64,000 bases of DNA from contig CALMNW010000034.1 of NCBI GenBank assembly GCA_937872095.1, positions 20,107 through 84,106 on the forward strand, given 5' to 3'. Under the pieces are notes generated by a model, which ran no database searches, was not told where the DNA came from, and saw nothing but the letters and a program-made list of their open reading frames with translations. The position numbers were made by a program, and so were the translations under genes. The DNA comes from an uncultured Verrucomicrobiota bacterium (GTDB lineage Bacteria > Verrucomicrobiota > Kiritimatiellia > CAIQIC01 > Lenti-01). Shown here one piece after another: positions 25,126 through 46,622 of the stretch (position 1 is its first letter; the number at the start of each line of letters is the position of its first letter).

Positions 25126-26297
25126 CGGAAGCGGCCGATAGCTGCGACGGACTGGACGAGCAAGCCGCATCCGCGTCGCCGACGGGCATGCCGCCGGACG
25201 TGCCGGCGCTGAAGGTGTTCTACCTCTATCTCTCGGCCGGTTGCAATCTCTGCTGCCGCCATTGCTGGATCACGCCCACGTTCGTGCACGGCCAGCCGGT
25301 GCCGGCGGAGTGCCTGGATTTTGGCTTGCTTCAGAGCGCGGTGGCGGCAGCCAAGCCCATGGGACTGTCTTCGGCCAAGTTGACCGGCGGCGAGCCGACG
25401 CTGCATCCGGAATTCCGGAAGATCGTCGATTACCTGACGGGCGAGGGGCTGGATCTTTCCATGGAAACCAACGCCACGCTGATCGATCGGGATCTGGCGG
25501 TTCATCTGCGGAAAAAAACGTCGTTGAAGCGCGTTGCCGTCAGCTTGGACAGCCCATTGGCGGAGGAACACGATCGTTTCCGGGGCCGGGACGGCGCGTT
25601 TGCCGCCGCCGTGCGCGGCATCGGACATCTGGTGGCCGCCGGACTCCGGCCGCAGATCATCATGTCGGTTTATCGAGGCAATCTGGACCGAATCGAGGGA
25701 TTGATCGAACTGGCGATGAAACTGGGCGCCCTTTCGGTGAAGTTCAATCCGGTCACCCGCTCGGGCCGGGGCGAGGAAATGCATCGGCAAGGGCAAGGGC
25801 TGGATTTCGATGAATGGGTGGCGCTGATTCGGCGCGTTCGCGGGCCGTTGCGGGAACGGTATCCCATCCACCTCAACGCGATGGTGCCGCCGGCGATGTC
25901 GACGGTGGGGGAATTGTTGCGCTACGGCGGCGAAGGCGCGGGGTGCCACGTGCGGCACATTTTGGGGATTCTCGGCACCGGCGAGATGGCGCTGTGCGGG
26001 ATCGGCCGGAACGTGCCGGAGTTGTGTTTCGGAAAACTGGGACAAGACTCCCTGCGGGAGGTTTGGATGCACCATCCGACCTTGGTCCAGATGCGGAAGG
26101 ATCTGCAGGGCCCGTTTCCGGGCATCTGCGGCGATTGCCTGCATGCGGGCCGTTGCCTGACCCACTGCCTGGCGCAGAACTTCGAGGCGAACGGCCAGCT
26201 GGTGTCGCCGTCGCCTCTGTGCGCGGAAGCCGTGCGCCGCGGCGTTTTTCCCGAGACCCGGCGGATTTCATGGGGACAGAGGCGGACGACCGCATGA
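25122..26297 (+). CDS. Radical SAM / SPASM-domain protein (second maturase-like enzyme)
   Basis: CNLCCRHC gives C-x3-C-x2-C at Cys1/5/8. The C-terminal SPASM region is CHVRH...CGIG...CGDCLHAGRCLTHC. A GTG start at 25122 overlaps the upstream stop (GTGA); an alternative ATG is at 25188. Confidence 0.65.
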   Translation: MTEAADSCDGLDEQAASASPTGMPPDVPALKVFYLYLSAGCNLCCRHCWITPTFVHGQPVPAECLDFGLLQSAVAAAKPMGLSSAKLTGGEPTLHPEFRKIVDYLTGEGLDLSMETNATLIDRDLAVHLRKKTSLKRVAVSLDSPLAEEHDRFRGRDGAFAAAVRGIGHLVAAGLRPQIIMSVYRGNLDRIEGLIELAMKLGALSVKFNPVTRSGRGEEMHRQGQGLDFDEWVALIRRVRGPLRERYPIHLNAMVPPAMSTVGELLRYGGEGAGCHVRHILGILGTGEMALCGIGRNVPELCFGKLGQDSLREVWMHHPTLVQMRKDLQGPFPGICGDCLHAGRCLTHCLAQNFEANGQLVSPSPLCAEAVRRGVFPETRRISWGQRRTTA

Positions 26298-26872
26298 CTT
26301 TTTCCGGCGGGGAAGGTCTTTTTCTGCATGCGTCCGCGGTGACCATGGACGGTGAAGCGTTTCTTTTCCTGGGGCATTCGACGGCGGGGAAGAGCACGAT
26401 CGCCCGGTTGCTGGGGGAGGCATATCCGGTCGTCGCCGACGATTCGGTCTTTGCCGCGCGCGGGCCGGATGGCCGCTGGAGCGTGGTCGACGGCGGATTC
26501 CGATTCAAAGAAACGGATCTCGCGGGCTGGCAAGAGCGGATTCGCCGCCAGATCGCCGAACGACCCATTCCCTTGCGGGCTTGTCTGCGCATCCACAAGG
26601 CGCCCGAGCTTCGCATCGAGCCGATGGATTCGCTGGAGTTGGCGCGATATTTGATGGATGCCGCGATGGAAATCGACTTGCAGCGGAAATTCGGGCGGCT
26701 GGCGGGCAAATCCAAGATCGAATCCGCAGTCTGGAACGAAGGCCTGCGAATGAGGGGGCATTGGTTTGGCCAAGCGGCAGAGATCGCCCGAACGATCCCG
26801 GGAAGGCATCTCTGGTTTTCGCGCGAGACGCCAGTCCGGGAAATTTGCGAAACGCTGCACCCGTCGGTCTGA
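26294..26872 (+). CDS. HPr-kinase-related P-loop kinase (HprK C-terminal-domain-like)
   Basis: ATGA overlap. GHSTAGKST P-loop in an HprK-like context (LFLHASAV...GEAFLFLGHSTAGKSTIA), 192 aa. Confidence 0.55.
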   Translation: MTFSGGEGLFLHASAVTMDGEAFLFLGHSTAGKSTIARLLGEAYPVVADDSVFAARGPDGRWSVVDGGFRFKETDLAGWQERIRRQIAERPIPLRACLRIHKAPELRIEPMDSLELARYLMDAAMEIDLQRKFGRLAGKSKIESAVWNEGLRMRGHWFGQAAEIARTIPGRHLWFSRETPVREICETLHPSV

Positions 26873-27253
26873 TCGCAAAATGGGGGAAGTTCGGTCGCCG
26901 GCAGCTACATCTGCGATGGATGTGACCGGCCAGCCGCCGGCGATATTAAAAATTGCGCTCTAACCTCTCAGTAACATGGCCTATTCGCTTTGCGTGAAGA
27001 ATATCGCGGCCTTTGAAATTCGTATTGCTCTGTTGGCAATGAAGATAAGATGAAACATCTTGTCGTGTCCGAGCAATCGGCAGGGGGTGGACATTCGGGC
27101 AAGGGACCGGCATTAACACAATCATAACTATATTGTAACCATATATTAATCGTACACAGTTTGCGTATAAATATCTAAACGGCTACTTTCTTTTCATCTA
27201 ATAAGCAGGCGGCTGATTTTATCCGTCGCCTTTGGTGTTTTGTGGCAAAAACG
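26873..27253 (+). promoter_or_regulatory. AT-rich intergenic region upstream of the giant gene; the only break in coupling in the first 40 kb
   Basis: About 380 bp, with the stretch 27100-27200 below 35% GC inside a ~67% GC context (tataaatatctaaacggctactttcttttcatctaataagc). No convincing ORF. Promoter elements are not individually assignable. Confidence 0.3.
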
Positions 27254-30200
27254 ATGAACATACGATCGTCATGGTGCTCGCGGCAGTTTCTGCTGGTCGC
27301 GGCTCTGGCCGTTGCGGGAATATCCGGTCCGGCGCGGGCGGGGAATCCGGATGGGGATCTGCGCGTCGAGATCGTCACGGCTTACAACCTGGTGGTGGAC
27401 TCCAACGCGGAGTCGCCGTCGACCTACGCGCCGAAATCGGCCTACATCGGGGCGAAGTTCTGCAACGACGGCACCGCGCCGCTGACGAACGTCTGGGCGT
27501 ACATCGGCGATCTGGCCGCCGGCACGCCGGGGACCTATCCGAGCCGGGCGCATCCGGGTTTGGTCGGGCCGCTGCCGGGCGGGGAATTCGCGCTGACCCA
27601 CGAGGGCGGGACGATGGGGGCGACCGACGCCACGCGGTACGTCGGCACGATCGATCCGGGCGAGTGCGTGACGGTGTACTGGCTGGTCAGCTATCCGCAG
27701 CTGGACGAAAACGGCGATGCGGTCTGGGGGCCCAGCGTCAAGCCCGACGACGACCTGTGGATGGAATACGACGTCTGGGCTACGGCCCAGCAGGGCGCGG
27801 CGTATTACCAGGCCGACGACTCGCAAACGCTGACCTGCCGCAACGAGATTTCGGCGATGGCCAACAAGATCTGGCCCAACGGCGCCAACAAGGTGCCGCA
27901 GGAATACCAGGATCTGCTGCAGCAGTACGTGCCGTTGTGGACGAACACGTCCGCCGTCGCCGAACCCGGTGCGGTCTTGCGGACGGAAGGCATCTGGTAC
28001 GATCTGGGCAACGTCGGCGACGGATTCGACAACGACGGCGATTTGGTGCCGGACCGCAACGCGTGGCTCCAGCCCGTCGGCGACCCGGACATCTTCGATC
28101 CGTCTTGCTTCCGCATGGTCCGCACCTACGTGATGATCATCGTGAAACTCAACGACGGGACCGAACAGGTCATCGTCACGGAAGACCAGCTCTACTTCAC
28201 GCAGATTCCCGCGAACAACCGCGGGGCGGTGGGCTACGTGATGTACGAGTTCGTCGCGATCGGCTCGGGCTGCGTCAGCACGCTGACGCCGTACCAGGAA
28301 GTGGCGTCGGGCTTCGACAACGAGAAGTTCAACGGCGACTACGGGGCGCCGGGGCAGACCTTGACCGGCGGCACGTCGCTGCTGGCCATCGCGAAATCGG
28401 CGGATCCGATCGTGACGCGGCCCGGGAGCAACATCGCCTATACGGTGACCTACACGAATTCGGGCCCGGATCCTTCGGGCCGGCCGGACATCGGGTTGCC
28501 GGTGGTGGTCCAGGATTCCATCCCGACGGGCACCGTCTACGTGGCGGGCAGCGCGACGGCCGCCAATGTCCTGCCGGGGGGCGTGAGCAGCTACGAAGTC
28601 CATTACTCGACGAACCACGGGCTGACCTGGTCCCTGTCGGAACCGGCGGTGGCCACGAACGTGACGGACGTGCAGTGGTGGCTGAGCGATCCGCTGCCGG
28701 CGGGCGGCGCGGGCACCGTGCGGTTCACCGTCAAGATCGCGAATCCCTGGCCCTTCCCGAGTCCGATCGTGCCCAATACGGCGGGGCTGAGTTTCGGGAA
28801 CACGACGCCGTTCATGTGGGCGCATGCGCAAACCCTGCTGCTGGGCAACAACGCGCTGGGCGACACCGTCTGGCGCGACGACGGAGCGGGTGGCGGCCTG
28901 CTCGGCAACCAATTGCAGGAAGGCGGGGAAACGGGCATCACCGGCGTGACGGTGCGGTTGTACTACGATCTGGACGGCGACGGCACAGGCGATTTCCTGT
29001 TCGCCACGACGAACACGGGCGCGAACGGCTACTACACGTTCACCAACCTGCCGGACGGCCACTTTACCGTGGTGGTGGAAACCACGAATTCGCACATTCC
29101 CTTCGGCTACACGCCGACCACGCCCACTTCCTTCTCGATTCCGCTCGATCCCGCGCGCACCAACGTCAATCCCGTCGTGAATTGGACGGCCGATTTCGGT
29201 TTCGCGCCGGCCTTGACGCTGATCAAGACGCATACGAGCACCAACGCCGTCCGCGAAGGCCAGTTGATCAGCTACAATTTGACGGTCTCCAACAATCTGC
29301 CGGGCAACGGCACCGGTTCGGGCTCGCCGGCGACCTATTACGCCTGGGCCTCCAGCGGCGGCGCCGACTACAAGAACACCGAGTGGGTGAATTACTCGAA
29401 TGCCTTCTATCCGCCGGGGCCGGATGGCCTGTACACGTCCAACCAGTTCGCGGGACCGACGACGGTGCTGTCCCTGACCAACTTCACCGTGGGCGCGCAG
29501 CTGGGCACCGTCACGAACGTGTCGCTGGTGATGCCCATCCAAATGGTGCCGCCCATCGGCGGCGACGACACGGTCACCATTGAAGTCCGCACGCTGTCGC
29601 CCTCCACGATACGCTTTTCGCAGACCTATTTGGCCACGAGCCTGGTCAGCGGCGTGTGGACGGTGCCGCGAACGGGCAACTACGCCTGGACCTGGGCGGA
29701 TTTCGACTCGAACGCCGTCGTGACGTTGTCCGCCAAGAAAAACTCGGGCGGCACGGCCGGCGGCTGGATCCTGCTGGATGCCGTAGGGTTCAAGATCGAA
29801 AGCGACCAGACCGTGGGCGTGGCCGGGGACACGACGACGCTGGATCCGGTGCCGCTCGTGGATCGCTACGATCCCGCCAAGTTGCAATTCGTGAGCGCCC
29901 AGCCGCCCGAATCGAGCGTGGAAACCGATCCCACGGGCACGATCTATTGGGACAACGTGGGGCCGATCTATCCCGGCGGCACCTCGACGGTGGCGGTTAC
30001 GTTCAAGTTGCTGGAGCCGCCCGGCAACACCAACACCGTGGTGACGAACACCACCTGGGTCACGAACGCGTACTTCACGGGCGGCGCCCACGCCAACAAC
30101 GCCACGAGCAGCGTGGTCGTCACGCAGTTCCCCGCCGCAACGGTCGGCGACTACGTCTGGCGCGACCTGAACGGCGACGGGATCCAGAATGAAACCAACA

Positions 30201-33200
30201 TGGGCATCGCCAACGTGGCCGTATCCATCACGCCGCCGGCGGGCATCGATCTCGGCCGCGGCGCGGGCCTGGCGATCACCAACTGGACGGACGCCAGCGG
30301 CTACTACCTGTTCGAATCCATCCCGGCGACGGGCGTCTACACCGTGCGGGTGGTCACGGCGACTCTGCCGGGCGGCATCGGCACCCAGACCTACGACGAA
30401 GATGCCGTCAAGGACAGCACGCACGCGGTTTATCTGGACATCTACGCGGCGCCTGCCAGCACGAACAACCTGCATCTGACCACCGACTTTGGGTACACGC
30501 TGGCCAGCGCGATCGAGGGCACGATTTGGCACGATTACGACCGGGGCCAAGAGTCTTACCGCGAAGCCGGCGAGGATTGGATGACCAACGTGACGGTCTA
30601 TCTCTGCGCCAGTCCTTCGCCGTGCGGGCCGGGCGCGTCTATCGCCACGAACGTCACGACCACCAACGGCTACTTCCGCTTCACCGGCAACTTCGACGGC
30701 ACCTACACCGTCTTCGTCGCGACGAATTCCGGCATGCTCAGCAACGGTTCCTGGCACGTGTCGTTCGACACGGACGGAACCAACACGGCGAACTATGCCG
30801 CGGTGACGGTTCCGCTCGGCGGGGTGGGGCGGGCGGACTTCAGCTATTTCCGCACCGGGCCGTATCGAATCGGCGACACGCTGTTCTACGACTGGAACGG
30901 CGACGGCGCGCAGGATGTGGCGTCCGAGGAAGGCATCCCGGACGTCACGGTCTGGCTCTATGAAGACGCCAACAGCAACGGCGTCGTGGATGCGGCCACC
31001 GACGCCCTCGTCGCGACGACGGTTACGACGACGAACGGCTATTACGTCTTCACCAACCTGTTCGCGACGAACACCTATCTGGTGATGGTGGACCGCGCCG
31101 ATCCGGACCTGCCGGCGAGCTGCCACGTGACGGCGGATCCGTGGGGGGCGCTGGATGCCCGCAGCGTCGTGACGATCGTCAACGCCGACAACTTCGACCA
31201 GGACTTCGGGTTCCAGCCCTATGGCAGCGGCGCGATCGGCGACACCGTGTGGCTTGACCGCAACGCCGACGGCATCCAGCTCGGCACCCAGGAACCCGGA
31301 CTCCCCGACGTCGAGGTCCGTCTGTACGTCGATTTCGACGGCAACGGCGACTACGTGCTTTTGCGGACCACGAATACCGATGCCAACGGACTCTATCTCT
31401 TCGACGAATTGCCGGACGGCGACTACCGCGTCGTAGTGGACGACGCGGACGCCGATTTGCCGGTCGACGCATATGGCAACGTCTATTACCCGAGCACGGC
31501 CGTCTCGTTCGACGTGGAGATCAGCGGCGGCAACACGTACTTGGACGCGGACTTCGGCTTTGCGCCCTACGGCGCGATCGGCGATACGGTTTTCTGGGAC
31601 CTCAACCGCAACGGCGACCAGGACTTCAACGACCCCGGCGTGCCGGGCGTGGACGTTTATCTGTACGCCGACGCCAACGGCAACGGCATCTACGATACGG
31701 GCGAAACGCTGCTGGCCACCGAAACCACCGATGCCACCGGCTTCTACGTCTTTTCCGGCCTCTTGCCCGACGATTACGTCGTCGTAGTCGAAACGGCCAG
31801 CGGCCCGCTGGCCGGCACGGACCAGACCGCCGATCCCCAGTCGGACGGCTTGGCCTGCGACGATCCGCTCAACGTCGTGCCTTGCGACGACCAGTGCGGC
31901 TGGTCGCTCGCGCCCGCGCAGATTTTCATGGGCGCGGACTTCGGCTACGCCCCGCGGGGCGTCATCGGGGACACCGTCTGGGTCGACGCGAACGACAACG
32001 GCTTGCGCGACGCCGGCGAACTGGGGATCCCGTACGTCGACGTGATTCTTTATTCCAACGGCGTGGCCATCGCGACCAATACGACGGATGCCGACGGCAT
32101 CTACGGATTCAGCGGCCTGGTGGATTTCTCCAACTACGGCGTGCGGGTGGCGACCAACGACGTCGACTTCCCGGCGGGCCTGACCAACACGTGGACGGCG
32201 GACGGAACGTTCGACAACTACACGACCAACATCGTGATGTCCGGCGGCGCCGTGACGTCCATCGGCGGCTATCCCTGCACGGATTGCGACCTGAACGTCG
32301 ATTTCGGCTACCGCTATGCCGGCAACAACAGCCTGAGCGGCACGATCGGGCTCGATGCGCCGACGTACGACGGCCTGATGAACGACTTGAATCCGTCCGG
32401 TCCGGGTCCCGGCGAATCGCCTTATGCCGGCGTGCCGGTCACGCTGTACCTGTGGAACGACGACGGCGACGGCATCATCGAGGCCGGCGAGACCACGCAG
32501 CTTGGCTCGACCGTCACCGATGCCAACGGCGACTACGCGTTTACGGGCTTGCCGAACGGCGACGGCGACGACAAGTACGTGGTGGCCAGTGCCGCGCCGG
32601 AAAGCTATCTGACTCTCACGACCACCAACGGCTCCATCGCCGGCGTGACGGTGTTTTCCACGACCAATCTCCAAGGCTATGCGGTGTCTGCCCGGCTGGC
32701 AGTGAGCGTCGCGCCCAGCATCACGAACATGGATTTCGCCTATGCCTCCCAGAAATCCTACGACTACGGCGACCTGCCGGACAGCTACGGAACGTTGCTG
32801 GCCGACGGCGCGCGGCACGTCGTGGCGACCGTGCCGGACCTCTATCTGGGTGCCGGCGTCGATACGGAAAGCAACGGCCAACCCTCGGCCGGAGCCGACG
32901 GGGACGATCTGGCCGGAACGGACGACGAAGACGGGGTGGTCCAATTGACCAACGCCATCTGGACCGTCGGCGCCGCTGGCGGTTCCGTCGAGGTGACGGT
33001 GGGCGCCGGCAGCGGCTGGCTGCTGGGCTATATCGATTTCAACGGCGACGGCGACTTCGTGGACGCCGGCGAAATGATCGCCAGCCAGGCGGTTTCCGCC
33101 ACCGGCGGCAACGGCGCAGGCGTCTACACGAATTCGTTCACGATTCCGGCCGGCACGTTCTCGGCGACCAGTTCCACGCCGCTGTATGCCCGCTTCCGGT

Positions 33201-36200
33201 TGTTCCCCGAAGAGCCGTTGTTCCCCGAACTGGCGTATGCCGGCACCGCCGCCGACGGCGAGGTGGAAGACTACCTCTGGCATTTGGCTGGCCTCGGCGA
33301 CTACGTTTGGTACGACGTGAACGGCGATGGCATCCAAGACGTCGGCGAACCGCCGATCGTCGGCGTGCGCGTGTTCCTCGATCTGAACGACGATGGCGTC
33401 TGGCAGGCCGCCGAACCGGCCGCGACCACCGACGCCGACGGGCTCTACGGCATCGGTGGGCTGATTGCCGGCACCTATGTCGTCCGGGTGGATACCAACA
33501 CCTTGCCGGTCGGCGTGTTGCCCACCTACGACTACGACGGCATCGGCACGCTGCATGTCGCTTCCGTGGACGTCGCCCAGTTGGATCAATTCTTCGACGA
33601 GGCCGATTTCGGCTATCTGCCGCCGGTGGACATCGGCGATCGGGTGTGGTTCGACGCCAATCGCGACGGCATCCAGAACGCCGGCGAGACCGACAACTTC
33701 ATCGGCATTCCGGTCGCCCTGCTGGACAGCAACGGGACCATCGTCGCCCAGACCGTAACCGACGACAACGGCTTGTACCTGTTCGAAGACATGCCTGCGC
33801 AAACCTATTTCCTGCGGTTCGATCTGGCCAGCATCAGCACGAACGAGAACGTCAGCACCTACAAGGTCGGCAGCGACGACGAAGTCGACAGCGACGCGAT
33901 CATCGGCAACGTGGGCGATTACGCCTGGACCGCCGCCGTCGTTCCCGTCGCGGGCGAATCCCTGCTGACGGTCGATCTGGGCATCACCACGCGCGGTTCG
34001 ACGCGCGCCGACCTCGCGGAAGTCTGGGGCGAATGGGTCGATGGGCAGGGCCGCGTCGCTTGGCGCACGGCGGCGGAATTCGGCACGGCGGGATTTTTTG
34101 TCTGGCGCATCGACCCGGCCTCGGGCGAGGAAACGCGGCTGAACCATCTGCTGGTGCCCTCGGCCTTCCAGGAAGGGGGCGCCACGTATGGGCTGGTGGA
34201 TCCCGCCGCCCGCGAAGACGAAGAAGGCGCCTATCGGATCGAAGAGGTGGAATTGTCGGGAGAAATCGTCGGTCTCGGTTCGCGTTCGGTGCGATTCGAC
34301 GCGCCGGCGCCGGCAGCCAAGTCCACGCGCGATGCCCGGGTCGCCAAGCCGATCGTGCAAGCGGTCCTTCCCAAGGCGTCGCAAGGCCCTTCGTCCGTGT
34401 TGAAAGTGCAAGCGGAGACGGAAGGGCTGTATGGCGTGGAATTGCAGGCGATCGCCGACGGCATGGGTCTTGCGCTTGAAAGCGTGCAGGCGCTGGCCGA
34501 GGCCGGATCGCTGAAGATCACGGAGCAAGCCCGTACGGTGCCGGTCAGCTACGATGCGGCCCGCGGGCGTCTGTTGTTCCATGCCAAGGCGCCCGATCGC
34601 AATTGGTATTCGCATGCCGATGCCTATCTGATTTCGGCGGGCGAGGGGCTGGCCATGCCGCAGCGGGAGCCGGATGCGGCGGCCGGTGCTTCGGTCTTTC
34701 CCGTGACGCTCCATTTCGAGGAGAACCTCTTCCTGTTCAACATGAACCGGATGCCGGACGATTTCTACTTCTGGGTCGGCGTGGTCAGCGGAACGAACGA
34801 CCTGCTGGATCCGATCTTCCCATTGGATCTGAACGGATACGCCGGCGGCGACATGCGCCTGAAAGTGCGCCTGATGGGGTGGTCCAGCACGACCAACGCC
34901 CCGGACCACCATGCCGAATTCTATTTCAACGGAACCTTGGCGGGCGACGTCGCCTTCGACGGGCAGGACGTCGCCGAAACCGAAATGACGATCCCGGCCG
35001 GCACGATATCGGACGGAATCAATGAGCTGCGGGTGCATGGCCGGATGCCGGAAGACCAAAGCCACAGCTTCTTCGTGGTAGACTGGGTGGAGGCTTCGTT
35101 CGACCGCCAGTTGGCGCCGGGAACGATTCCCGCGCCGTTCGCCGCTGCCGGCGCGTCTTCGATATCCGCGCAGGCTTTCGCCGAACCGATCGCGTTGGCC
35201 TTGGATGCAGCCGGAAATCCGACGCGGATCGCCGACGAATCCGGCGGCTTGCCATCCAGGGCCTGGACGGTGGCGCCGGCCGAAGACCGCTACGAAGTGC
35301 TCGAGGCGAACGACGTGCCGCTGTTGGTTCCGAAACCGGCGGCGGCCGATGCCTGGTTCCTGTCGGAGACGAACGCCGTCGACTATCTGGTGATCGCTCC
35401 GCGCGAACTGGCTCCGGCCGCGCAGGAATTGGCGGATTATCGGGCGGGACAGGGACTGCGTTCCGGCGTGGCGGTTTTCGAAGACGTGTGCGACCTGCTG
35501 GCCGGCGGCGTGCGCACCCCGGAAGCGATTTCCGGCTTGTTGCGGTATGCGGCGTCGACGTGGGCGGCTTCGCCCCGGATGGTGCTGCTGGCGGGCAGCG
35601 GGCACTACGATTATCTGGGGGTGAACACCAGCGAGGCCAACCATTTGCCGCCTTTGCTGGTCCAGATGCCGGTCGGCGTATGCGCATCGGACGCTTTGTT
35701 GGCGGATACGGGCGGGGACGAACTGCCGGATGTCGCGATCGGTCGATTGCCGGCCCGCACCGAAGCGGAGTTGGCCGCCATGATCGCGAAAATCAAGGCC
35801 TACGAGGCCGAATTCGGCGCGGAGTGGCAGAACCAATTGGTGCTGGTGGCCGACAACGCCGATCCGGCGGGTTATTTCGCCGCCGCGAACGAGCGGTTGG
35901 CGGAGCTGGTGTCCGCGCCCTATTCCGTGGCCGAGCGCATCGAATTGGATACGATGGATCTGGACCTTGCCCGTGCGGATCTGCTGGGCTGGTTCAATTC
36001 CGGCGCGGGATTCATCAACTACGTCGGGCACGGAAGCATCAAGACCCTCGCCGCCGAAAACCTTCTGGCGGCAACCAACGTCGATGAAATGGTCGCGACG
36101 GACCGTCCGTCCGTTGCGGTGACCTTGACCTGCTTGGCGGCGCGTTACGAAGTGCCGGCGGTGGAGAGCTTGGGCGAGCGGCTCATGCAGCGGGAACAGG

Positions 36201-39200
36201 GCGGAGCGGTCGCCGTGCTGGGGCCCTCGGGCCTTTCCCAGAACGCGCCGGCGACGGAATTGGGCGAGGCGTTCTATCGGACCATCCTGCAAGACGGGAT
36301 GGGCGAACTGGGCATGGCTTTTCTGCGCGCCCGCCGTTCGCTGCCCGCGAGCCTGTTCTCCAAAGACACGATCGCGGTCTACAATTTGCTTGGGGATCCG
36401 GCCCTGCGCATCGCGGGGAACGATCCGGCCGCCGCGGCGAAGCTTCCGGCCCAGATCTTCCTGCAAGACCTTGCGCAGACCTGCGACGGCACTCCGCGCG
36501 CCGTTTCGGCCGCGACGGAACCGGCTGGCCTGGCGGTGCGCATCACCTACGACGGCCATGCCGTGGCGCCGACGGCGGTCGGCTCCTATGCGGTGGTCGC
36601 GACGATCGCGACGGCCGATTACGAGGGAACCGCCGCGGGGACGCTGGTGGTCTCGAAGGCGGCAGCGGCGGTGTCGTTGACCGATCTCGAGCAGATCTAC
36701 GATGGTACGCCGAAGACGCCCGCCGCGACGACGGAACCGGCTGGTTTGGCCGTGGAATTCACGTACGACGGAGAGGCGACGCCGCCGACGGCGGCCGGCA
36801 CGTACGCCGTCGTCGCCACCGTGGCCGATGCCCAATGGGCGGGCGTGGCCACGGGCCTGCTGACGGTGGCCAAGGCGCCGGCGACGGTGCTGCTGGCCGG
36901 TCTGGCCCAAGTTTTCGACGAAACTCCGAGAATTGCGACAGCCACCACCGTGCCGGAAGGATTGTCCGTCGAAGTCCGCTACGACGGCTCGGAAACGCCT
37001 CCGGTCGGCGCCGGCAGCTACGTGGTCACGGCCGTGGTGGACGATCCCAACTTCGAAGGCATGGCCTCCGACGTGTTGACGGTATCCAAGGCCTCGGCGA
37101 CGGTCGTCTTGGGCAGTTTGGCCCAGACCTACGATGGCCGGCCCAAATACGCGACGGCGACCACCGCGCCCGGCGAACTGGCCGTCGATTTCACGTACGC
37201 CGGCTCGGCGCGAGCGCCCGTTGCCGCCGGCAGCTATGCCGTGGTTGGAACCGTGAGCGATCCCAACTGGCAGGGATCGGCTGCCGGGACGCTGGCCATC
37301 GGCAAGGCGGACCAGACGATCCAATTTGCCTCGATCGCCGACCAGATCACGACCGCCGCGGTCGAATTGTCCGCCACGGCGTCCAGCGGGCTGCCCGTGT
37401 CGTTCGCCGTCGTTTCCGGTCCGGCCGTTCTGCTGGGCGGAACAAGTCTTTCCTTCTCGGGTCCGGGGACGGTCGTCGTGGCCGCCCGGCAGGGCGGAAA
37501 CGAAAACTGGAATGCGGCTCCGGAAGCAACGCAAGTGTTCAACGTCGTGCCGGTCGTGCTGAGCAGCACCCGCGTTCTCGTGCGCGAAAACGGGGAGGGG
37601 CGTTTCTTCGTGAAGCTCTCGCAAGCCCCCGCCGCCAATACGACCGTCACGGTGGCCCGTTGCGCGGGCAGCGAAAGCCTTTCCGTGGCGAGCGGCGCCG
37701 AGTTGGTCTTCAAGGCGTCGAATTGGGATGCGTGGCAACCCGTGACGCTGGCCGCGGATCAAGATGCGAACGGCAGCGACGAGACGGCCACCTTCCGCGT
37801 GTCGACGGCCGGAGCGGCGGATCGGCAGTTGGAGGCCGTCGCGTTGGATGGCGACGCCGGAGAGAATCTGGCCTCGCCGGCGCGGGGAACCGCCATTTCC
37901 GGGACCCGCGGCTATTTCCTGCCGCTGGCGATCGACGGCATCCACGCGTCCCGCACCAATTACGCCTATACGATCTGGAGCAATCCGTCGCCCGGCACGA
38001 TGATTCTGGATTTGCAGGGAATCACGACGGTGTCGCGCCTGCGGTTGTTGAATTGGGATTGGAGTTTCCGTTCCCACCAATACATGCTGGAGTCGTCGGA
38101 GGACGGCGAAGATTGGTCTCTCCTGGTCGATGCCCGGTCGGGCGAGCATCGCGGCTGGGAAGACTGGGTGGTGGATGACACGCCGGCCCGGTATTTGCGC
38201 TTCACGGGGACGTCCAATTCCGCGAATACCGCCGTGTGCATTGCCGAATGGGAAGTGTATGGTCCCACCGGTTCGACCCCGCGGCCGGTTTGTTCGGCCG
38301 TCGACGTATCCGTCCGCGAAGCGGGCGAAGGCCGGTTCTTCGTGCGCCTGAACCAGGCGCCCGAGTCGAACGTCGTGGTCGGAGTGGCATGCGCCGCGGA
38401 ATCCGCCGGTCTGTCCGTGAAGAGCGGGCAAGCCTTGACCTTCAAGCCTTCGAACTGGAACGTTTGGCAGCCGGTCGTGCTCGCGGCGGAAGAAGACGCC
38501 AACGCCGAAGACGAGACGGCGTCGTTCCGCGTTTCGCTTTCGGGCGCGGCGGATCGCTACGTGAAGGCAACCGCGCTGGACGACGACATCGGGGAGAACG
38601 TGGCTCTGGCCTCGAGCGGGACTTCGATCTCGGGCTCGCGGGGCTATCTCTTGGGGGCGGCCATCGACGGAACGCACCTGTCGAGCACCAACTATGCCTT
38701 CGTGGTTTGGCCGGGCTCGATGACCCTGGATCTGCAAGGCGAGGTGGTCGTTTCGCGGGTACGGCTGTTGAACTGGGACTGGACCCTCCGGTCCCACCGC
38801 TATCGGATCGAGGCTTCGCTGGACGGCGCGAACTGGTCGGTGTTGGCGGATGCGAGCGAAGGCGAACACCGCGGTTGGGAAGATTGGCCGGTCGCCGACC
38901 AGCGGATTCGGTTCCTGCGGTTTACCGGCCTATACAATTCCGCGAATTCCGCCGTGTGCATCGCCGAATGGGAGGTCTACGGCACGCGCACGCAGCGGTC
39001 CGAACTGGAGGTGTCGGCAACGAACGTCAACGTGCGCGAGGCGGGTGAAGGTCGCTTCTTCGTGCGGCTGGATCGCGCTCCGGCGGGAGACGTCGCGGTC
39101 GCGGTGGCGCGCGTTTCGGGCGATTCGGCCATTTCGGCGGAAGACGGGGCGACGCTGACCTTCAAGCCGTCGAATTGGAACGTCTGGCAGGCCGTGACGC

Positions 39201-40120
39201 TGGTGGCGCAAGAGGATGAAAACGCCGCTGGCGAAACCGCGCTCTTCCGGATTTCGGCGCCGGACGCGCAGGATCGATTCGTGGAGGCCGCCACGCTGGA
39301 CGACGATATCGGCGAGAATCTGGCCTTGGCTTCTAACGGCGCCCGGATTTCCGGGACGCGGGCTTATTTGACGGCGCTGGCGATCGATGGGCAGCATCTG
39401 TCCCGCGCGAATTACGGCTACGCGGTCTGGACGAACGAACCGCCCGGGGCGATGACGCTGGATCTGGGCGCGGCGCGGTCCGTTGCGCGGGTGCGCCTGC
39501 TGAACTGGGACTGGAATTTGCGTTCTCACCGCTATCGGATCGAAACCTCGGAGGACGGGCTGGTTTGGTCGGTGCTGGCGGATGCGAGCACAGGCGAGCA
39601 CCACGGCTGGGAAGATTGGGCGGCAGACGGCCGCGCGATCCGCTATCTGCGCCTGACGGGCCTGTACAATTCCGCGAATTCCGCCGTCTGCATCGCCGAA
39701 TGGGAAGTGTACGGCGCGGCCCCGGCGGCAGCGGCCAGCGCGGCGGCGGTTAACGTCGTCGAGGATCCGTTCCCGCTGACGATCGTGACGAGCGACGACG
39801 GGCCGGACTACACCAACGGCTGGGCGGCCGTGGACGGCGATACGAATACCTGCTGGATTGGCCGGGCGGGCGCCGGCGGCTGGTACATCGCCGTCGGCTA
39901 CGACGCCGTCTGGCACATGACCAATCTCGTGGTGGATTTGGCCGAAGGTTCGGCGACGCAATTCCAATGCCTGCATAGCCTGGATGCCGTGAACTGGCAG
40001 GAGTGGCCGACGGAAAAGGATGAAGATTCCGTCGACATGAGCTATCTGTGGATTCTGTTCCCCGCCGATGGTCCGGCGGCCCCGGAACCCCGCGTGATTG
40101 AAATCCGGCCCCAGCAATGA
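27254..40120 (+). CDS. Giant secreted multidomain protein (about 4290 aa): signal peptide, ~16 SdrD-B/CnaB-like repeats, C25 (gingipain-like) cysteine peptidase domain, 4 MBG repeats, 3 near-identical discoidin-containing repeats plus a terminal discoidin domain
   Basis: Signal peptide MNIRSSWCSRQFLLVAALAVAGISGPARA|GNP; GTG at 27242 is an alternative start. Repeated GDxVWxDxNxDGxQ...GYYxFxNL units run to about 34 kb. C25 catalytic motifs NYVGHGS (His) and TLTCLAA (Cys) lie near 36.0-36.2 kb. MBG-like YDGTPK...AGTYAVVATV units lie at 36.45-37.3 kb. Three F5/8-type-C-like repeats end in CIAEWEVYG. A single 12.9-kb ORF. No PEP-CTERM tail. Confidence 0.85.
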   Translation: MNIRSSWCSRQFLLVAALAVAGISGPARAGNPDGDLRVEIVTAYNLVVDSNAESPSTYAPKSAYIGAKFCNDGTAPLTNVWAYIGDLAAGTPGTYPSRAHPGLVGPLPGGEFALTHEGGTMGATDATRYVGTIDPGECVTVYWLVSYPQLDENGDAVWGPSVKPDDDLWMEYDVWATAQQGAAYYQADDSQTLTCRNEISAMANKIWPNGANKVPQEYQDLLQQYVPLWTNTSAVAEPGAVLRTEGIWYDLGNVGDGFDNDGDLVPDRNAWLQPVGDPDIFDPSCFRMVRTYVMIIVKLNDGTEQVIVTEDQLYFTQIPANNRGAVGYVMYEFVAIGSGCVSTLTPYQEVASGFDNEKFNGDYGAPGQTLTGGTSLLAIAKSADPIVTRPGSNIAYTVTYTNSGPDPSGRPDIGLPVVVQDSIPTGTVYVAGSATAANVLPGGVSSYEVHYSTNHGLTWSLSEPAVATNVTDVQWWLSDPLPAGGAGTVRFTVKIANPWPFPSPIVPNTAGLSFGNTTPFMWAHAQTLLLGNNALGDTVWRDDGAGGGLLGNQLQEGGETGITGVTVRLYYDLDGDGTGDFLFATTNTGANGYYTFTNLPDGHFTVVVETTNSHIPFGYTPTTPTSFSIPLDPARTNVNPVVNWTADFGFAPALTLIKTHTSTNAVREGQLISYNLTVSNNLPGNGTGSGSPATYYAWASSGGADYKNTEWVNYSNAFYPPGPDGLYTSNQFAGPTTVLSLTNFTVGAQLGTVTNVSLVMPIQMVPPIGGDDTVTIEVRTLSPSTIRFSQTYLATSLVSGVWTVPRTGNYAWTWADFDSNAVVTLSAKKNSGGTAGGWILLDAVGFKIESDQTVGVAGDTTTLDPVPLVDRYDPAKLQFVSAQPPESSVETDPTGTIYWDNVGPIYPGGTSTVAVTFKLLEPPGNTNTVVTNTTWVTNAYFTGGAHANNATSSVVVTQFPAATVGDYVWRDLNGDGIQNETNMGIANVAVSITPPAGIDLGRGAGLAITNWTDASGYYLFESIPATGVYTVRVVTATLPGGIGTQTYDEDAVKDSTHAVYLDIYAAPASTNNLHLTTDFGYTLASAIEGTIWHDYDRGQESYREAGEDWMTNVTVYLCASPSPCGPGASIATNVTTTNGYFRFTGNFDGTYTVFVATNSGMLSNGSWHVSFDTDGTNTANYAAVTVPLGGVGRADFSYFRTGPYRIGDTLFYDWNGDGAQDVASEEGIPDVTVWLYEDANSNGVVDAATDALVATTVTTTNGYYVFTNLFATNTYLVMVDRADPDLPASCHVTADPWGALDARSVVTIVNADNFDQDFGFQPYGSGAIGDTVWLDRNADGIQLGTQEPGLPDVEVRLYVDFDGNGDYVLLRTTNTDANGLYLFDELPDGDYRVVVDDADADLPVDAYGNVYYPSTAVSFDVEISGGNTYLDADFGFAPYGAIGDTVFWDLNRNGDQDFNDPGVPGVDVYLYADANGNGIYDTGETLLATETTDATGFYVFSGLLPDDYVVVVETASGPLAGTDQTADPQSDGLACDDPLNVVPCDDQCGWSLAPAQIFMGADFGYAPRGVIGDTVWVDANDNGLRDAGELGIPYVDVILYSNGVAIATNTTDADGIYGFSGLVDFSNYGVRVATNDVDFPAGLTNTWTADGTFDNYTTNIVMSGGAVTSIGGYPCTDCDLNVDFGYRYAGNNSLSGTIGLDAPTYDGLMNDLNPSGPGPGESPYAGVPVTLYLWNDDGDGIIEAGETTQLGSTVTDANGDYAFTGLPNGDGDDKYVVASAAPESYLTLTTTNGSIAGVTVFSTTNLQGYAVSARLAVSVAPSITNMDFAYASQKSYDYGDLPDSYGTLLADGARHVVATVPDLYLGAGVDTESNGQPSAGADGDDLAGTDDEDGVVQLTNAIWTVGAAGGSVEVTVGAGSGWLLGYIDFNGDGDFVDAGEMIASQAVSATGGNGAGVYTNSFTIPAGTFSATSSTPLYARFRLFPEEPLFPELAYAGTAADGEVEDYLWHLAGLGDYVWYDVNGDGIQDVGEPPIVGVRVFLDLNDDGVWQAAEPAATTDADGLYGIGGLIAGTYVVRVDTNTLPVGVLPTYDYDGIGTLHVASVDVAQLDQFFDEADFGYLPPVDIGDRVWFDANRDGIQNAGETDNFIGIPVALLDSNGTIVAQTVTDDNGLYLFEDMPAQTYFLRFDLASISTNENVSTYKVGSDDEVDSDAIIGNVGDYAWTAAVVPVAGESLLTVDLGITTRGSTRADLAEVWGEWVDGQGRVAWRTAAEFGTAGFFVWRIDPASGEETRLNHLLVPSAFQEGGATYGLVDPAAREDEEGAYRIEEVELSGEIVGLGSRSVRFDAPAPAAKSTRDARVAKPIVQAVLPKASQGPSSVLKVQAETEGLYGVELQAIADGMGLALESVQALAEAGSLKITEQARTVPVSYDAARGRLLFHAKAPDRNWYSHADAYLISAGEGLAMPQREPDAAAGASVFPVTLHFEENLFLFNMNRMPDDFYFWVGVVSGTNDLLDPIFPLDLNGYAGGDMRLKVRLMGWSSTTNAPDHHAEFYFNGTLAGDVAFDGQDVAETEMTIPAGTISDGINELRVHGRMPEDQSHSFFVVDWVEASFDRQLAPGTIPAPFAAAGASSISAQAFAEPIALALDAAGNPTRIADESGGLPSRAWTVAPAEDRYEVLEANDVPLLVPKPAAADAWFLSETNAVDYLVIAPRELAPAAQELADYRAGQGLRSGVAVFEDVCDLLAGGVRTPEAISGLLRYAASTWAASPRMVLLAGSGHYDYLGVNTSEANHLPPLLVQMPVGVCASDALLADTGGDELPDVAIGRLPARTEAELAAMIAKIKAYEAEFGAEWQNQLVLVADNADPAGYFAAANERLAELVSAPYSVAERIELDTMDLDLARADLLGWFNSGAGFINYVGHGSIKTLAAENLLAATNVDEMVATDRPSVAVTLTCLAARYEVPAVESLGERLMQREQGGAVAVLGPSGLSQNAPATELGEAFYRTILQDGMGELGMAFLRARRSLPASLFSKDTIAVYNLLGDPALRIAGNDPAAAAKLPAQIFLQDLAQTCDGTPRAVSAATEPAGLAVRITYDGHAVAPTAVGSYAVVATIATADYEGTAAGTLVVSKAAAAVSLTDLEQIYDGTPKTPAATTEPAGLAVEFTYDGEATPPTAAGTYAVVATVADAQWAGVATGLLTVAKAPATVLLAGLAQVFDETPRIATATTVPEGLSVEVRYDGSETPPVGAGSYVVTAVVDDPNFEGMASDVLTVSKASATVVLGSLAQTYDGRPKYATATTAPGELAVDFTYAGSARAPVAAGSYAVVGTVSDPNWQGSAAGTLAIGKADQTIQFASIADQITTAAVELSATASSGLPVSFAVVSGPAVLLGGTSLSFSGPGTVVVAARQGGNENWNAAPEATQVFNVVPVVLSSTRVLVRENGEGRFFVKLSQAPAANTTVTVARCAGSESLSVASGAELVFKASNWDAWQPVTLAADQDANGSDETATFRVSTAGAADRQLEAVALDGDAGENLASPARGTAISGTRGYFLPLAIDGIHASRTNYAYTIWSNPSPGTMILDLQGITTVSRLRLLNWDWSFRSHQYMLESSEDGEDWSLLVDARSGEHRGWEDWVVDDTPARYLRFTGTSNSANTAVCIAEWEVYGPTGSTPRPVCSAVDVSVREAGEGRFFVRLNQAPESNVVVGVACAAESAGLSVKSGQALTFKPSNWNVWQPVVLAAEEDANAEDETASFRVSLSGAADRYVKATALDDDIGENVALASSGTSISGSRGYLLGAAIDGTHLSSTNYAFVVWPGSMTLDLQGEVVVSRVRLLNWDWTLRSHRYRIEASLDGANWSVLADASEGEHRGWEDWPVADQRIRFLRFTGLYNSANSAVCIAEWEVYGTRTQRSELEVSATNVNVREAGEGRFFVRLDRAPAGDVAVAVARVSGDSAISAEDGATLTFKPSNWNVWQAVTLVAQEDENAAGETALFRISAPDAQDRFVEAATLDDDIGENLALASNGARISGTRAYLTALAIDGQHLSRANYGYAVWTNEPPGAMTLDLGAARSVARVRLLNWDWNLRSHRYRIETSEDGLVWSVLADASTGEHHGWEDWAADGRAIRYLRLTGLYNSANSAVCIAEWEVYGAAPAAAASAAAVNVVEDPFPLTIVTSDDGPDYTNGWAAVDGDTNTCWIGRAGAGGWYIAVGYDAVWHMTNLVVDLAEGSATQFQCLHSLDAVNWQEWPTEKDEDSVDMSYLWILFPADGPAAPEPRVIEIRPQQ
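28858..33990 (+). repeat. Tandem array of ~16 diverged SdrD-B/CnaB-type (Ca-binding, carboxypeptidase-regulatory-like) domain repeats inside the giant gene
   Basis: Recurring protein motif G-D-[TY]-V-[WF]-x-D-x-N-x-[DN]-G-x-[QR]-[DN]...G-[YI]-Y-x-F-x-[NG]-L every ~100 aa. Diverged at nucleotide level. Confidence 0.6.
37552..39715 (+). repeat. Three tandem, highly similar ~725-nt repeats (each a beta-sandwich 'RFFV[KR]L' module plus a discoidin domain) inside the giant gene
   Basis: Repeat starts at about 37552, 38286 and 39006. Long identical nucleotide runs occur, for example tacaattccgcgaattccgccgt[cg]tgcatcgccgaatgggaagtgtacggc in copies 2 and 3. Protein copies are roughly 65-75% identical. 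Confidence 0.7.
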
Positions 40121-40616: not shown

Positions 40617-41306
40617 GTGCGGAGATGCGCGGGGGATTCCGCGACCTGCGGTCCGAAGGATGCCGGGCCTATGTTGAATTCCGATATGTCAGCGGAGTCG
40701 TCCAGCCTATCCGGTACAAAACCCATTTGGTTGTCCCGTGTTTCCGCTCCTTGCCGCGGGGAGAGCATGTGGGGGACCTTGGAGGAAGGGGATTGCCTTT
40801 GGGTGATTCCCGTTTTGTTCGATGCCCTGCAACCCGGCGACGTCGTGGCGTTCGAATTCGGGGGTAAAGTCGTCGCCCACCGGATCGTAGGCCGGGAAGG
40901 CAATGGGTTCGCGACGCAGGGAGATGGCAATGACAATCGGGATTCCACGCCGCTGACCGCCGAGCGACTGATCGGCAAAGTGGTGGCACGGGAACGCAAG
41001 GGCGTTCGCAAAGCCGTGATCGGTGGGAATCGCGGCCGGCAGCGGGCGCGGATCTTGCGGTCCATCTGCTGGATTCGCCACTCCTCCGCGTTCTGGACGG
41101 TGCGCTTGCTTCGCACGCTGCCCGTCCGCCACGTTGTTTCCTGGTTATGGCGGCCGGTCATCCTTTCCGTTGGCTTTATGTCGCCGCAGGGGGGAATCAC
41201 CAAGTTCATCCATCAGGGACGGACCGTGGCCATCTGGAATCCGCAATCGCGGCGCTGGAACTGCCGAATGCCCTACGATTTGATTATATCCCCGCCGGTC
41301 CAATGA
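40617..41306 (+). CDS. S26-family signal-peptidase-I-like protein (SipW/ER-type, S26B-like) lacking the usual N-terminal membrane anchor
   Basis: GESMWGTL (Ser box), VVAHRIVG (His box) and QGDGNDNRDSTPL (GDNN-type box) occur in the canonical S26B order and spacing. No hydrophobic segment precedes the Ser box. The start is uncertain (possible internal Met). Confidence 0.5.
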   Translation: MRRCAGDSATCGPKDAGPMLNSDMSAESSSLSGTKPIWLSRVSAPCRGESMWGTLEEGDCLWVIPVLFDALQPGDVVAFEFGGKVVAHRIVGREGNGFATQGDGNDNRDSTPLTAERLIGKVVARERKGVRKAVIGGNRGRQRARILRSICWIRHSSAFWTVRLLRTLPVRHVVSWLWRPVILSVGFMSPQGGITKFIHQGRTVAIWNPQSRRWNCRMPYDLIISPPVQ

Positions 41307-44331: not shown

Positions 44332-44347
44332 AGAGGTCCATTTGATT

Positions 44348-45748: not shown

Positions 45749-45759
45749 GAGGCGAAAAC

Positions 45760-46320: not shown

Positions 46321-46348
46321 CCGACGCAAGACCTTTCGCGGAACACTG

Positions 46349-46386
46349 AGCCCTTCGATCCAAACGGGACCGAAGGGCTTTTCGTT
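46349..46386 (+). terminator. Rho-independent terminator candidate closing the + strand operon
   Basis: Inverted repeat agcccttcg-(13 nt loop)-cgaagggct followed by tttcgtt, located 30 nt after the stop of the last operon gene. Confidence 0.4.
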
Positions 46387-46447
46387 GGAGCCCTCGGCCG
46401 GGCCGGAGGGCAGGTATGGGGGCGTCCCTGGTCGCAGGGAGGAAAAG

Positions 46448-46495
46448 TGGTGGCGGGAACCGGGGTCGAACCGGTGACCTAAGGCTTATGAGAAA
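46448..46495 (-). tRNA. 3' fragment of a tRNA (or tmRNA) gene: T-arm, acceptor 3' strand and CCA only; probable att-site remnant at a mobile-element boundary
   Basis: Reverse complement reads ...AGGTC ACCGG TTCGACC CCGGT TCCCGCC A CCA: variable loop, perfect 5-bp T-stem with a TTCGACC loop, a 7-nt acceptor strand, the discriminator and CCA. The complementary 5' acceptor strand GGCGGGA and a paired anticodon stem are absent. The upstream sequence switches abruptly to AT-rich DNA. Confidence 0.5.
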
Positions 46496-46622
46496 TCATT
46501 CCGAATACATATATCTAATTGCATTATATGATATAATGACATAATACTTATTCATACTTGACACCTACTTGACACTCCCAGCCCACTCTGTCAGAGTGCC
46601 ATAAGAAGCCAACGGGAGTCAG

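Follow-up and report, generated by a model that had tools for sequence, protein, structure and literature searches.

A 64,000-nucleotide stretch of contig CALMNW010000034.1 (assembly GCA_937872095.1, an uncultured Verrucomicrobiota bacterium), referred to below as the window, contains a giant open reading frame (ORF) predicted to encode a secreted, adhesin-like protein of 4,288 amino acids (aa) with a PorU-like cysteine peptidase module of family C25. The gene lies within a block resembling the SynChlorMet system, which encodes radical S-adenosylmethionine (SAM) enzymes with SPASM domains, PqqD-family proteins, an HPr-kinase-related protein (ScmC) and a small Cys-rich precursor-like peptide, and related C25 genes adjoin PqqD-radical SAM-precursor-ScmC cassettes in several phyla. 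From this conserved neighbourhood, the giant C25 protein is very probably linked to the cassette in function.

Linkage of giant C25 genes with a radical SAM/SPASM cassette

Scanning of GTDB species representatives with the C25 region yielded 59 loci, cited by their L numbers where they have to be told apart. Best matches came from Kiritimatiellia MAGs at about 70% identity, which indicates the lineage of the host. The full recurring order of the window is ScmE-PqqD-ScmD-ScmF-ScmC, giant C25, Cys-rich precursor, S26 signal peptidase homologue, NTP_transf_5, ABC exporter and BBP2 barrel. From the Scm genes to BBP2 this order was identical in L006, L007, L011, L012 and L015, and L008-L010, L013, L014 and L023 hold it as far as their contigs extend. 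The initial annotation, made from the sequence of the window without database searches, had placed the giant gene between the two halves of a putative modification system. A gene that merely splits such a system is not supported, as the position between ScmC and the precursor is conserved in orthologous loci.

A simpler cassette, consisting of genes for PqqD (~100 aa), a radical SAM/SPASM enzyme (~360 aa), a ~60-aa ORF and ScmC (~300 aa), follows more distant C25 homologues with identities down to about 30%. It was found in Nitrospirae, Acidobacteriota, Chloroflexi and Lentisphaerae, besides many Kiritimatiellia paralogues. A C25 gene followed by PqqD-radical SAM-precursor-ScmC was present in L001, L017, L020, L021, L024, L025, L028, L029, L034-36, L041 and L045, among which L034 is labelled Lentisphaerae, L041 Nitrospirae and L045 Aminicenantes, the others being Kiritimatiellia/Verrucomicrobiota metagenome-assembled genomes (MAGs). 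The cassette genes of L043, L044 and L049 have the precursor placed between C25 and PqqD; L044, L046 and L049, all counted with the simple set, are labelled Thermoanaerobaculia, and L043 is a closely similar unclassified MAG. The Anaerolineales locus L052 combines C25 with an S26 homologue and a PqqD-radical SAM fusion, and in the delta-proteobacterial MAG of L054 homologues of ScmE/F (~51% identity) lie close to a C25 gene in fragments, in a locus too frameshifted for a precursor to be read. The view of the giant gene as an unrelated insertion is also countered, because C25 genes of this clade adjoin PqqD-radical SAM-precursor-ScmC in several phyla.

Cassette parts were present in 33 of the 57 non-Bacteroidales loci, 25 of which had three or more; the other loci were mostly truncated contigs or upstream members of tandem C25 arrays. 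None of six PorU-like loci of Bacteroidales/Bacteroidia had any cassette part. The linkage is strong, not universal. In reverse look-ups that started from precursor peptides, all five precursors adjoined a giant C25 gene (3,300-4,116 aa). Four of the five loci began with C25, PqqD, radical SAM, precursor, ScmC and a gene of ~600-640 aa with at most a faint FecR match, and continued with an outer-membrane gene (BBP2_2 in two of the four), Poly_export, Wzc-like, Wzy_C and ABC2_membrane genes; where the locus reached, ABC_tran came last, carrying Wzt_C in two.

In two of these four look-ups, the C25 genes are separated from PqqD by PAS sensor genes. The Kiritimatiellia loci L002, L004, L064 and L067 contain one to four large opposite-strand PAS genes between tandem C25 genes and PqqD-radical SAM-precursor-ScmC, and some of them carry a histidine-kinase ATPase domain. 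The PAS-domain genes may be regulators of the system. The S26/SipW-like homologue recurs beside C25 in window-type loci and in loci labelled Chloroflexi (Anaerolineales, Ardenticatenaceae), with sites at ~3872 in L048, ~2458 in L052 and ~14188 in L054. Its role may be that of a signal peptidase dedicated to the giant protein or that of the leader peptidase.

The precursor peptide family

Precursors of the simple cassettes have the consensus MNP...VRRPYEKPEIKRVDLALAETLSxGCKLExDxxCVGPPITAxEGGS, with the leader motif (R)PYEKPxLxR. Tyr, Pro, one Cys and the C-terminal Ser were invariant across the sampled phyla. A profile search retrieved at least 281 members, none named and none with a Pfam domain, and NCBIfam has no model for the family. 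Ser is the last residue in 119 of the best 120 matches, and the number of Cys is exactly two in 116 of the 120. The YxxP leader motif resembles the motif bound in lasso peptides by the recognition element (RRE) of peptides that are made by the ribosome and modified after translation (RiPPs).

The precursor of the window shares the KYEKP leader (KYEKPVSIDMG) and has a longer core than the simple type, with seven invariant Cys and a variable acidic tail. It showed 63-84% identity in 10 orthologous loci and had no Pfam or NCBIfam match. The window block brings together a PqqD/RRE domain, radical SAM/SPASM enzymes and a small leader-bearing precursor in one operon-like unit, the components by which a RiPP-type locus is recognised. 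Extra precursor copies were located directly between or before tandem giant C25 genes, away from the radical SAM gene (L068, 10001-10156; L043, 7041-7232; L044, 6772-6996). As extra precursors accompany extra C25 genes, the peptide appears to be paired with C25 beyond a shared neighbourhood, which suggests one peptide per C25 protein.

The ScmC of window-type loci is short (192 aa, the P-loop half only), and the simple-cassette forms have about 300 aa. Since the window ScmC is short and its precursor has no C-terminal Ser, the kinase step may differ between the cassette types.

The C25 module resembles PorU

Peptidase_C25 (PF01364, clan CD) matched aa 2711-3053 over the whole profile (1-374 of 374) with 231.2 bits against a cutoff of 23. 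His2926 aligned with the GHGS of RgpB (His211 by count from the alignment) and the GHGG of PorU, and Cys2960 with DVACVNG of RgpB (Cys244 by count from the alignment) and TATCDF of PorU; each residue was at least 90% conserved in a 45-sequence alignment. The C25 domain with both catalytic motifs, as read from the sequence in the initial annotation, was thereby borne out. Structure prediction had been proposed there as a check, and the AlphaFold2 model of aa 2400-3065, built with 45 homologues (predicted local distance difference test [pLDDT] 93.2, predicted TM-score 0.91), has a caspase-like alpha/beta fold that matches solved C25 structures, with the catalytic motifs aligned. Sequence and fold criteria all place the giant protein in family C25, as a predicted peptidase.

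The best Foldseek match was PorU (6za2, latent PorU; E 3e-22), in which the N-terminal sandwiches were aligned too, followed by RgpB (TMt 0.68, root-mean-square deviation 3.1 Å), Kgp and separase. When the family profile was run against PDB sequences, PorU scored 191 bits, RgpB 138 and Kgp 71. The earlier designation as gingipain-like holds for the C25 family, but the module is closer to PorU than to the gingipains. Asp163, the S1 residue of RgpB, corresponds to Ala in ...GYFAAAN... by our own count of alignment positions, so that Arg/Lys specificity is unlikely as judged from the alignment.

The PorU equivalog model NF033707 gave 167.9 bits against a cutoff of 420 and the PorU2 model 112 against 450. 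No type IX secretion system (T9SS) genes were found among the scanned neighbouring ORFs, and the giant protein has no T9SS C-terminal domain (CTD). Gingipain-type Cleaved_Adhesin/haemagglutinin domains were not among the 14 Pfam families matched by the giant protein at E<=0.01, the MSCRAMM_SdrD model scored 239 against a cutoff of 2,500, and, as regards the tail of PEP-CTERM cargo (PEP motif, transmembrane helix and basic tail), the C-terminus showed neither a hydrophobic stretch nor an NCBIfam match. Judged by the features that define them, PorU, the gingipains, the MSCRAMMs and PEP-CTERM cargo do not include the giant protein.

Architecture and authenticity of the giant protein

The domain layout was derived from Pfam, NCBIfam and a self-trained hidden Markov model (HMM), and the features are collected in Table 1. 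Residues are numbered from the ATG at 27254, the start that gives a typical Sec signal peptide. The initial annotation was right about a single ORF, but it had paired this ATG coordinate with the length obtained from the GTG start. The signal peptide region is modelled with pLDDT <50, and orthologues also begin with signal peptides.

Table 1. Features of the giant gene, its product and its surroundings. Positions refer to the window, to residues of the giant protein (aa) or to the locus named.
Feature	Position	Strand	Remarks
Giant ORF	27254 (ATG)..40120	+	4,288 aa from ATG; alternative GTG start at 27242, 4,292 aa
AT-rich intergenic gap	26951..27300	+	Probable promoter region of giant gene; minimum GC 0.405
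Sec-type signal peptide	27254..27343	+	aa 1-30; MNIRSSWCSRQFLLVAALAVAGISGPARA followed by G, cleavage between ARA and G, read by eye
N-terminal head domain	27344..28378	+	aa 31-375; all-beta double sandwich, no Pfam family
Fibrillar-adhesin-like stalk	28382..33916	+	CLIPPER/DUF11, SdrD_B, GEVED
CLIPPER/DUF11, two copies	aa 377-466 and about 870-955		In stalk
SdrD_B, ten repeats	aa 534-2221		Pfam and self-trained HMM; 417.6 bits in total
GEVED, one domain	aa 1925-2008		In stalk
PorU-like C25 module	33986..36433	+	aa ~2245-3060; N-terminal beta-sandwich domains and catalytic domain
Catalytic His2926 codon	36029..36031	+	GHGS in NYVGHGS
Catalytic Cys2960 codon	36131..36133	+	TLTCLAA
MBG_3, four repeats	36449..37309	+	aa 3066-3352
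Short segment	aa ~3353-3430		No family match; looks Ig-like by eye
Three pairs of unassigned ~110-aa beta module and F5/8-C CBM32-like module	37544..39703	+	aa 3431-4150
Divergent fourth discoidin-like module	39806..40036	+	About aa 4185-4261; 22 bits against F5_F8_type_C cutoff of 28.2
PqqD-fused radical SAM/SPASM, ScmE-like	23129..24553	+	Pfam; TIGR04250, 390 bits against cutoff of 400
Two small genes: 97-aa protein, then PqqD-family gene	24550..25125	+
Radical SAM/SPASM, ScmF-like	25188..26297	+	Pfam; TIGR04251, 336 bits against cutoff of 400
Short ScmC/HPr-kinase-related P-loop protein	26294..26872	+	GHSTAGKST; TIGR04249, 33 bits against cutoff of 125
Cys-rich precursor-like peptide, 138 aa	40185..40601	+	Starts 64 nt after giant gene; MTDKKQMKYEKPVSIDMGRVAPILGDTC...
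S26-type (archaeal/SipW-like) signal peptidase I homologue	40737..41306	+	TIGR02228, 41 bits against 51.85; start uncertain
NTP_transf_5 nucleotidyltransferase	41147-42544	+	True start probably later
ABC exporter without C39 domain	42541-44331	+
BBP2_2/EpsL-like outer-membrane beta-barrel	44120..45748	+	Pfam BBP2_2; true start probably after 44331
Simple-type precursor ORF	L001 14687-14869
Simple-type precursor ORF	L041 13312-13569
Simple-type precursor ORF	L045 13356-13544
Simple-type precursor ORF	L044 11932-12111
Simple-type precursor ORF	L049 12058-12246

Homologues of the head domain number 164, all unnamed, and come from Kiritimatiellia, Planctomycetes, Anaerolineae, Thermoanaerobaculia and Electrothrix. 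The head-domain model (pLDDT 85.5) matched only generic beta-sandwich/adhesin folds in PDB, with TM<=0.25. Among some paralogues the head domain is more conserved than the protease region (up to 91% identity); the loci noted for this comparison were L009, L012, L015, L025 and L026, together with L028 and L034. Other giant C25 proteins (paralogues) have at least two unrelated head types behind the signal peptide instead.

CLIPPER has been described as a stalk domain of fibrillar adhesins (PMC12617251). The domain annotation by Pfam and NCBIfam agreed with most of the initial calls and corrected the repeat counts. Ten SdrD_B repeats replace the 'about 16' CnaB/SdrD-B repeats counted before, and the four MBG repeats were recovered by both Pfam and the self-trained HMM. 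Three of the four proposed discoidin domains are strong F5/8-C matches, but the fourth falls below the Pfam cutoff. The best PDB sequence matches of the discoidin modules were AlyQ and a glucanase/chitosanase chain, and the modules are taken as carbohydrate-binding modules of the CBM32 type on the basis of these matches. The ~110-aa spacer module preceding them gave matches to polysaccharide lyase family 14 (PL14) that were not significant (E 0.05-0.09).

No hydrophobic C-terminal anchor was found (the protein ends in ...PRVIEIRPQQ), and an NCBIfam scan of the whole protein at E<=0.01 returned five families, with no C-terminal sorting-signal family among them. The reported lack of a PEP-CTERM, LPXTG or T9SS tail therefore holds. 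A secreted or matrix-associated protease with carbohydrate-binding modules and adhesin repeats, as suggested at the outset, fits the domain evidence.

The window has 65% GC, the giant protein is repetitive, and an antisense ORF of 3,866 aa (27269-38869, minus strand) overlaps the giant ORF; this ORF was rejected as a shadow frame of GC-rich coding sequence and is not considered a gene. Such features could accompany a chimeric assembly or a frame held open by high GC alone. The GC content at third codon positions (GC3) is 0.84 in the plus frame of the giant ORF, strong Pfam domains cover most of its product, and the internal repeats share just 60-77% nucleotide identity, so that repeat collapse in the assembly is unlikely. 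In two independent Kiritimatiellia/Verrucomicrobiota MAG assemblies, the orthologues in L006 (4,314 aa, 69% identity) and L013 (4,348 aa, 65% identity) are collinear over the whole protein in a single high-scoring segment pair, and P0301, a relative of 4,233 aa from a protein library clustered at 50%, has its C25 region in an equivalent position. Mis-assembly was rejected on the strength of the diverged repeats and the full-length collinear orthologues; an artefact of either kind has hardly any chance of being the explanation, and the giant gene is real and selected along its full length.

Neighbouring genes and the AT-rich gap

All genes from 21231 to 45748 are on the plus strand. From the ScmE-like gene on they are tightly packed or overlapping, apart from a gap of ~60 nt between ScmD and ScmF and a 380-nt AT-rich intergenic gap that separates the short ScmC-like gene from the giant gene. 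The 97-aa protein had no family match and only a 15.9-bit match to a regulator, and was read as PqqD-like or winged-helix-turn-helix-like; the PqqD-family gene after it matched ScmD best (TIGR04248, 39 bits against a cutoff of 100). Because the best matches to ScmC, ScmD, ScmE and ScmF all fall short of the NCBIfam cutoffs, the block is called Scm-like. The BBP2_2 barrel is its last conserved gene, with 55-68% identity in orthologous loci.

Upstream of the ScmE-like gene lies a Polysacc_synt_2 gene. The genes for exopolysaccharide (EPS) in this part are generic, encoding GT4 glycosyltransferases, a Wzy/O-antigen-ligase-like protein, an acetyltransferase and Polysacc_synt_2. Among the scanned ORFs no exosortase was detected, which does not agree with the exosortase-type EPS locus named in the initial annotation.

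The AT-rich gap (26951-27300) contains the sole 200-nt interval with GC <0.47 within positions 1-46000, so that its description as the only AT-rich gap in 40 kb holds and extends to 46 kb. Orthologues are likewise preceded by an AT-rich dip. A sigma-70 scan of the gap detected no promoter-like site on the plus strand, and Rfam at gathering thresholds gave no match there. Of the proposal that the gene is independently regulated, an own promoter is plausible, the dip being found before the orthologues as well; the gene as an independent insertion is not supported.

Beyond the conserved block, GC falls to 0.49-0.59 at 44000-53500, and a phage-integrase-family gene is present at 46623-48065. No tRNA was found in the window. 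The region 44000-53500 may be a mobile element or an island boundary. A 494-aa ORF at 53764-55248 has the N-terminal and central domains of the DNA polymerase III beta subunit (sliding clamp), and no C-terminal clamp domain was detected in it at E<=1e-3. A typical DnaN has about 370 aa and is shorter than this ORF.

Discussion

We observed the ORF with its domains and aligned catalytic residues, a conserved gene neighbourhood and a family of precursors; from these we infer the biochemical steps, the substrate of the peptidase and its localisation. We give roughly even chances to the giant protein being an extracytoplasmic, matrix-tethered C25 peptidase that processes an exported, radical SAM-modified peptide. 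The giant protein would be exported by Sec. In the cytoplasm, PqqD-type chaperones/RRE proteins would bind the YxxP leader of the small Cys-containing precursor, and one or two radical SAM/SPASM enzymes would cross-link or otherwise modify its Cys-containing core. HprK-like kinases of lasso clusters (PadeK, ThcoK, PsmK) phosphorylate a conserved C-terminal Ser, and the NTP-transferase homologue PsmN further decorates this Ser (PMC9266682). In the simple cassettes, phosphorylation of the near-invariant C-terminal Ser is probably the task of the HPr-kinase-related ScmC. NTP_transf_5 may decorate the Ser further, as PsmN does. The peptide would then be exported, an ABC exporter being encoded at the window locus, and processed by the C25 module at the cell surface or in the EPS matrix, with removal of the leader as the likeliest step. 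By its stalk and its CBM32/MBG arrays, the enzyme would be kept on glycans or in the polysaccharide matrix, whose export genes are adjacent. Every cassette type has C25, and no other peptidase is shared by all of them, which makes C25 the candidate for the processing step: the simple cassettes lack the S26 homologue, and the ABC exporter of the window has no C39 peptidase domain.

Several points weigh against a role of C25 in processing the peptide. No cassette is present in the flanks covered of seven C25 loci that extend at least 4 kb to either side, and the AT-rich gap suggests a separate promoter for the giant gene. Near the simple cassettes there is no obvious exporter for a peptide, the ABC genes there being Wzm/Wzt-like polysaccharide exporters, and it is therefore hard to explain how a cytoplasmic peptide would meet a secreted peptidase. 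An adhesin-like protein of 3,000-4,300 aa far exceeds the needs of a leader peptidase, and in the window the S26 peptidase could remove the leader instead. The window-type precursor, moreover, does not end in Ser.

The module might instead act as a PorU-like transpeptidase (sortase), forming an acyl-enzyme and then transferring the C-terminus of a peptide or protein to an amine, so that the radical SAM-modified, Ser-phosphorylated peptide or the giant protein would be coupled to EPS or the surface, for which Wza/Wzc/Wzy genes are adjacent. We regard this as rather unlikely. PorU is the best match in structure and in sequence, including the domains N-terminal to the catalytic domain, and it has a sortase-like mechanism with small residues preferred after the cleavage site (PMC4560394). 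The replacement of the Arg-binding Asp163 of RgpB by Ala, by our own count of positions, is in line with such an activity, as are the Poly_export, Wzc-like, Wzy_C and Wzm/Wzt genes directly after the simple cassettes and the strictly conserved C-terminus of the precursor (GGS), which suggests an end for recognition or attachment. The score for the NCBIfam PorU model, 168 against 420, argues against it, as does the lack of T9SS parts or CTD cargo in the window; nothing points to an acceptor amine, and transpeptidase and hydrolase outcomes are indistinguishable by sequence. Still further along this line, and distinctly improbable, is a surface-conjugation system in several phyla, in which a PorU-like transpeptidase would couple a radical SAM-cross-linked, Ser-phosphorylated and possibly glycosylated peptide with protein and exopolysaccharide. 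If true, this would be a previously unrecognised, RiPP-based functional analogue of T9SS/PorU or exosortase sorting.

Alternatively, the giant protein could act independently in the matrix or in nutrition, as a surface protease-adhesin that attaches to glycans by CBM32 and degrades external proteins or glycoproteins, its radical SAM neighbours merely sharing a cell-envelope/EPS island. The gene's own AT-rich upstream gap is compatible with this, the layout of adhesin, carbohydrate-binding module and protease recalls gingipain-type multidomain proteases, the C25 family is very large (13,352 cluster representatives in the 50%-cluster library at E<=1e-3, many of them with 2,000-4,600 aa), and some members have no cassette in the flanks covered. 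Taken alone, the giant protein is unremarkable within its lineage, as metagenomes contain thousands of large C25 proteins. Synteny persists in several phyla with the C25 regions sharing as little as about 30% identity, precursor copies pair one-to-one with extra C25 genes, and every one of the five reverse look-ups reached a C25 gene; against these observations, independence of the peptide system is not a likely account.

It is very improbable that the radical SAM/SPASM enzymes act on the giant protein as their substrate, for instance at the Cys of the discoidin motif CIAEWEVYG, which had been noted as a possible target in each of the four discoidins. The gene does sit between the cassette halves, and whole proteins can serve as substrates of radical SAM/SPASM enzymes, as they do for anaerobic sulfatase maturases. 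The motif occurs three times, not four, and its Cys is not conserved, the corresponding sequences being VVISELEVYG in L006 and VRIAEWEIYG in L008, with a shifted position in L013. The cassette-linked C25 proteins of L001 (1,100 aa), L045 (about 860 aa), L012, L015, L017 and L024 have no discoidins, and each cassette has its own small YxxP precursor suited to a PqqD chaperone. The discoidin Cys was accordingly rejected as a conserved radical SAM target.

PorU, the P. gingivalis T9SS sortase (C25, 6za2), shares with the giant module the beta-sandwiches preceding the catalytic domain, the GHG(S/G) His and T-C Cys motifs and the absence of an S1 Asp of the Arg/Lys type. Unlike PorU, the giant module has neither a T9SS CTD nor nearby T9SS genes, scores far under the NCBIfam cutoff, and is embedded in a 4,288-aa adhesin/CBM protein of a Kiritimatiellia-type host; unlike the PorU-like loci of Bacteroidales/Bacteroidia, its gene is coupled in the genome to a radical SAM peptide cassette. 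The gingipains RgpB and Kgp (1cvr, 4ief, 4rbm) share the catalytic fold (TMt 0.59-0.68), the His/Cys dyad and the concept of joining a secreted cysteine protease to modules for adhesion or carbohydrate binding, but differ in Asp163, in their prodomain, which Pfam did not find in the giant protein, and in the accessory domains. Fibrillar adhesins (PMC12617251) and the MSCRAMM Sdr proteins likewise have an N-terminal head followed by a long stalk, which in the giant protein is built of CLIPPER, SdrD_B and GEVED; unlike them, the giant protein has no LPXTG or OmpA-like anchor and carries protease and CBM modules at the C-terminal end of the stalk.

On the side of the cassette, SynChlorMet (TIGR04248-04251) provides the best NCBIfam matches for ScmE, ScmF, ScmD and ScmC, which form one co-directional block in the window, whereas the window locus adds a precursor, the giant C25, S26, NTP_transf_5, an ABC exporter and a porin. 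To our knowledge, the TIGRFAM descriptions of SynChlorMet identify no precursor and mention no C25 peptidase. Clusters for phosphorylated lasso peptides (paeninodin with PadeK, pseudomycoidin with PsmK/PsmN) have in common with the cassettes a PqqD-type chaperone, an HPr-kinase-related protein and an NTP-transferase homologue, and their precursors resemble those of the simple cassettes in the conserved C-terminal Ser, the residue at which lasso peptides are phosphorylated (PMC9266682). They differ in that no cyclase or B2 protease was present among the cassette genes examined, and in that the cassettes have radical SAM/SPASM enzymes, Cys-containing cores and a secreted C25 as the associated peptidase.

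A literature search found no paper on SynChlorMet and none on a C25 peptidase with radical SAM/SPASM enzymes, and both the coupling of C25 with the Scm-like cassette and the precursor family appear to be undescribed. The main significance is that SynChlorMet-type radical SAM/SPASM cassettes and secreted PorU-like cysteine peptidases form a conserved pair in several phyla. This pairing offers candidates for the substrate and for the processing enzyme, links the system to exopolysaccharide export and, if the proposed role is true, would extend C25/PorU-type enzymology beyond the T9SS of Bacteroidota.

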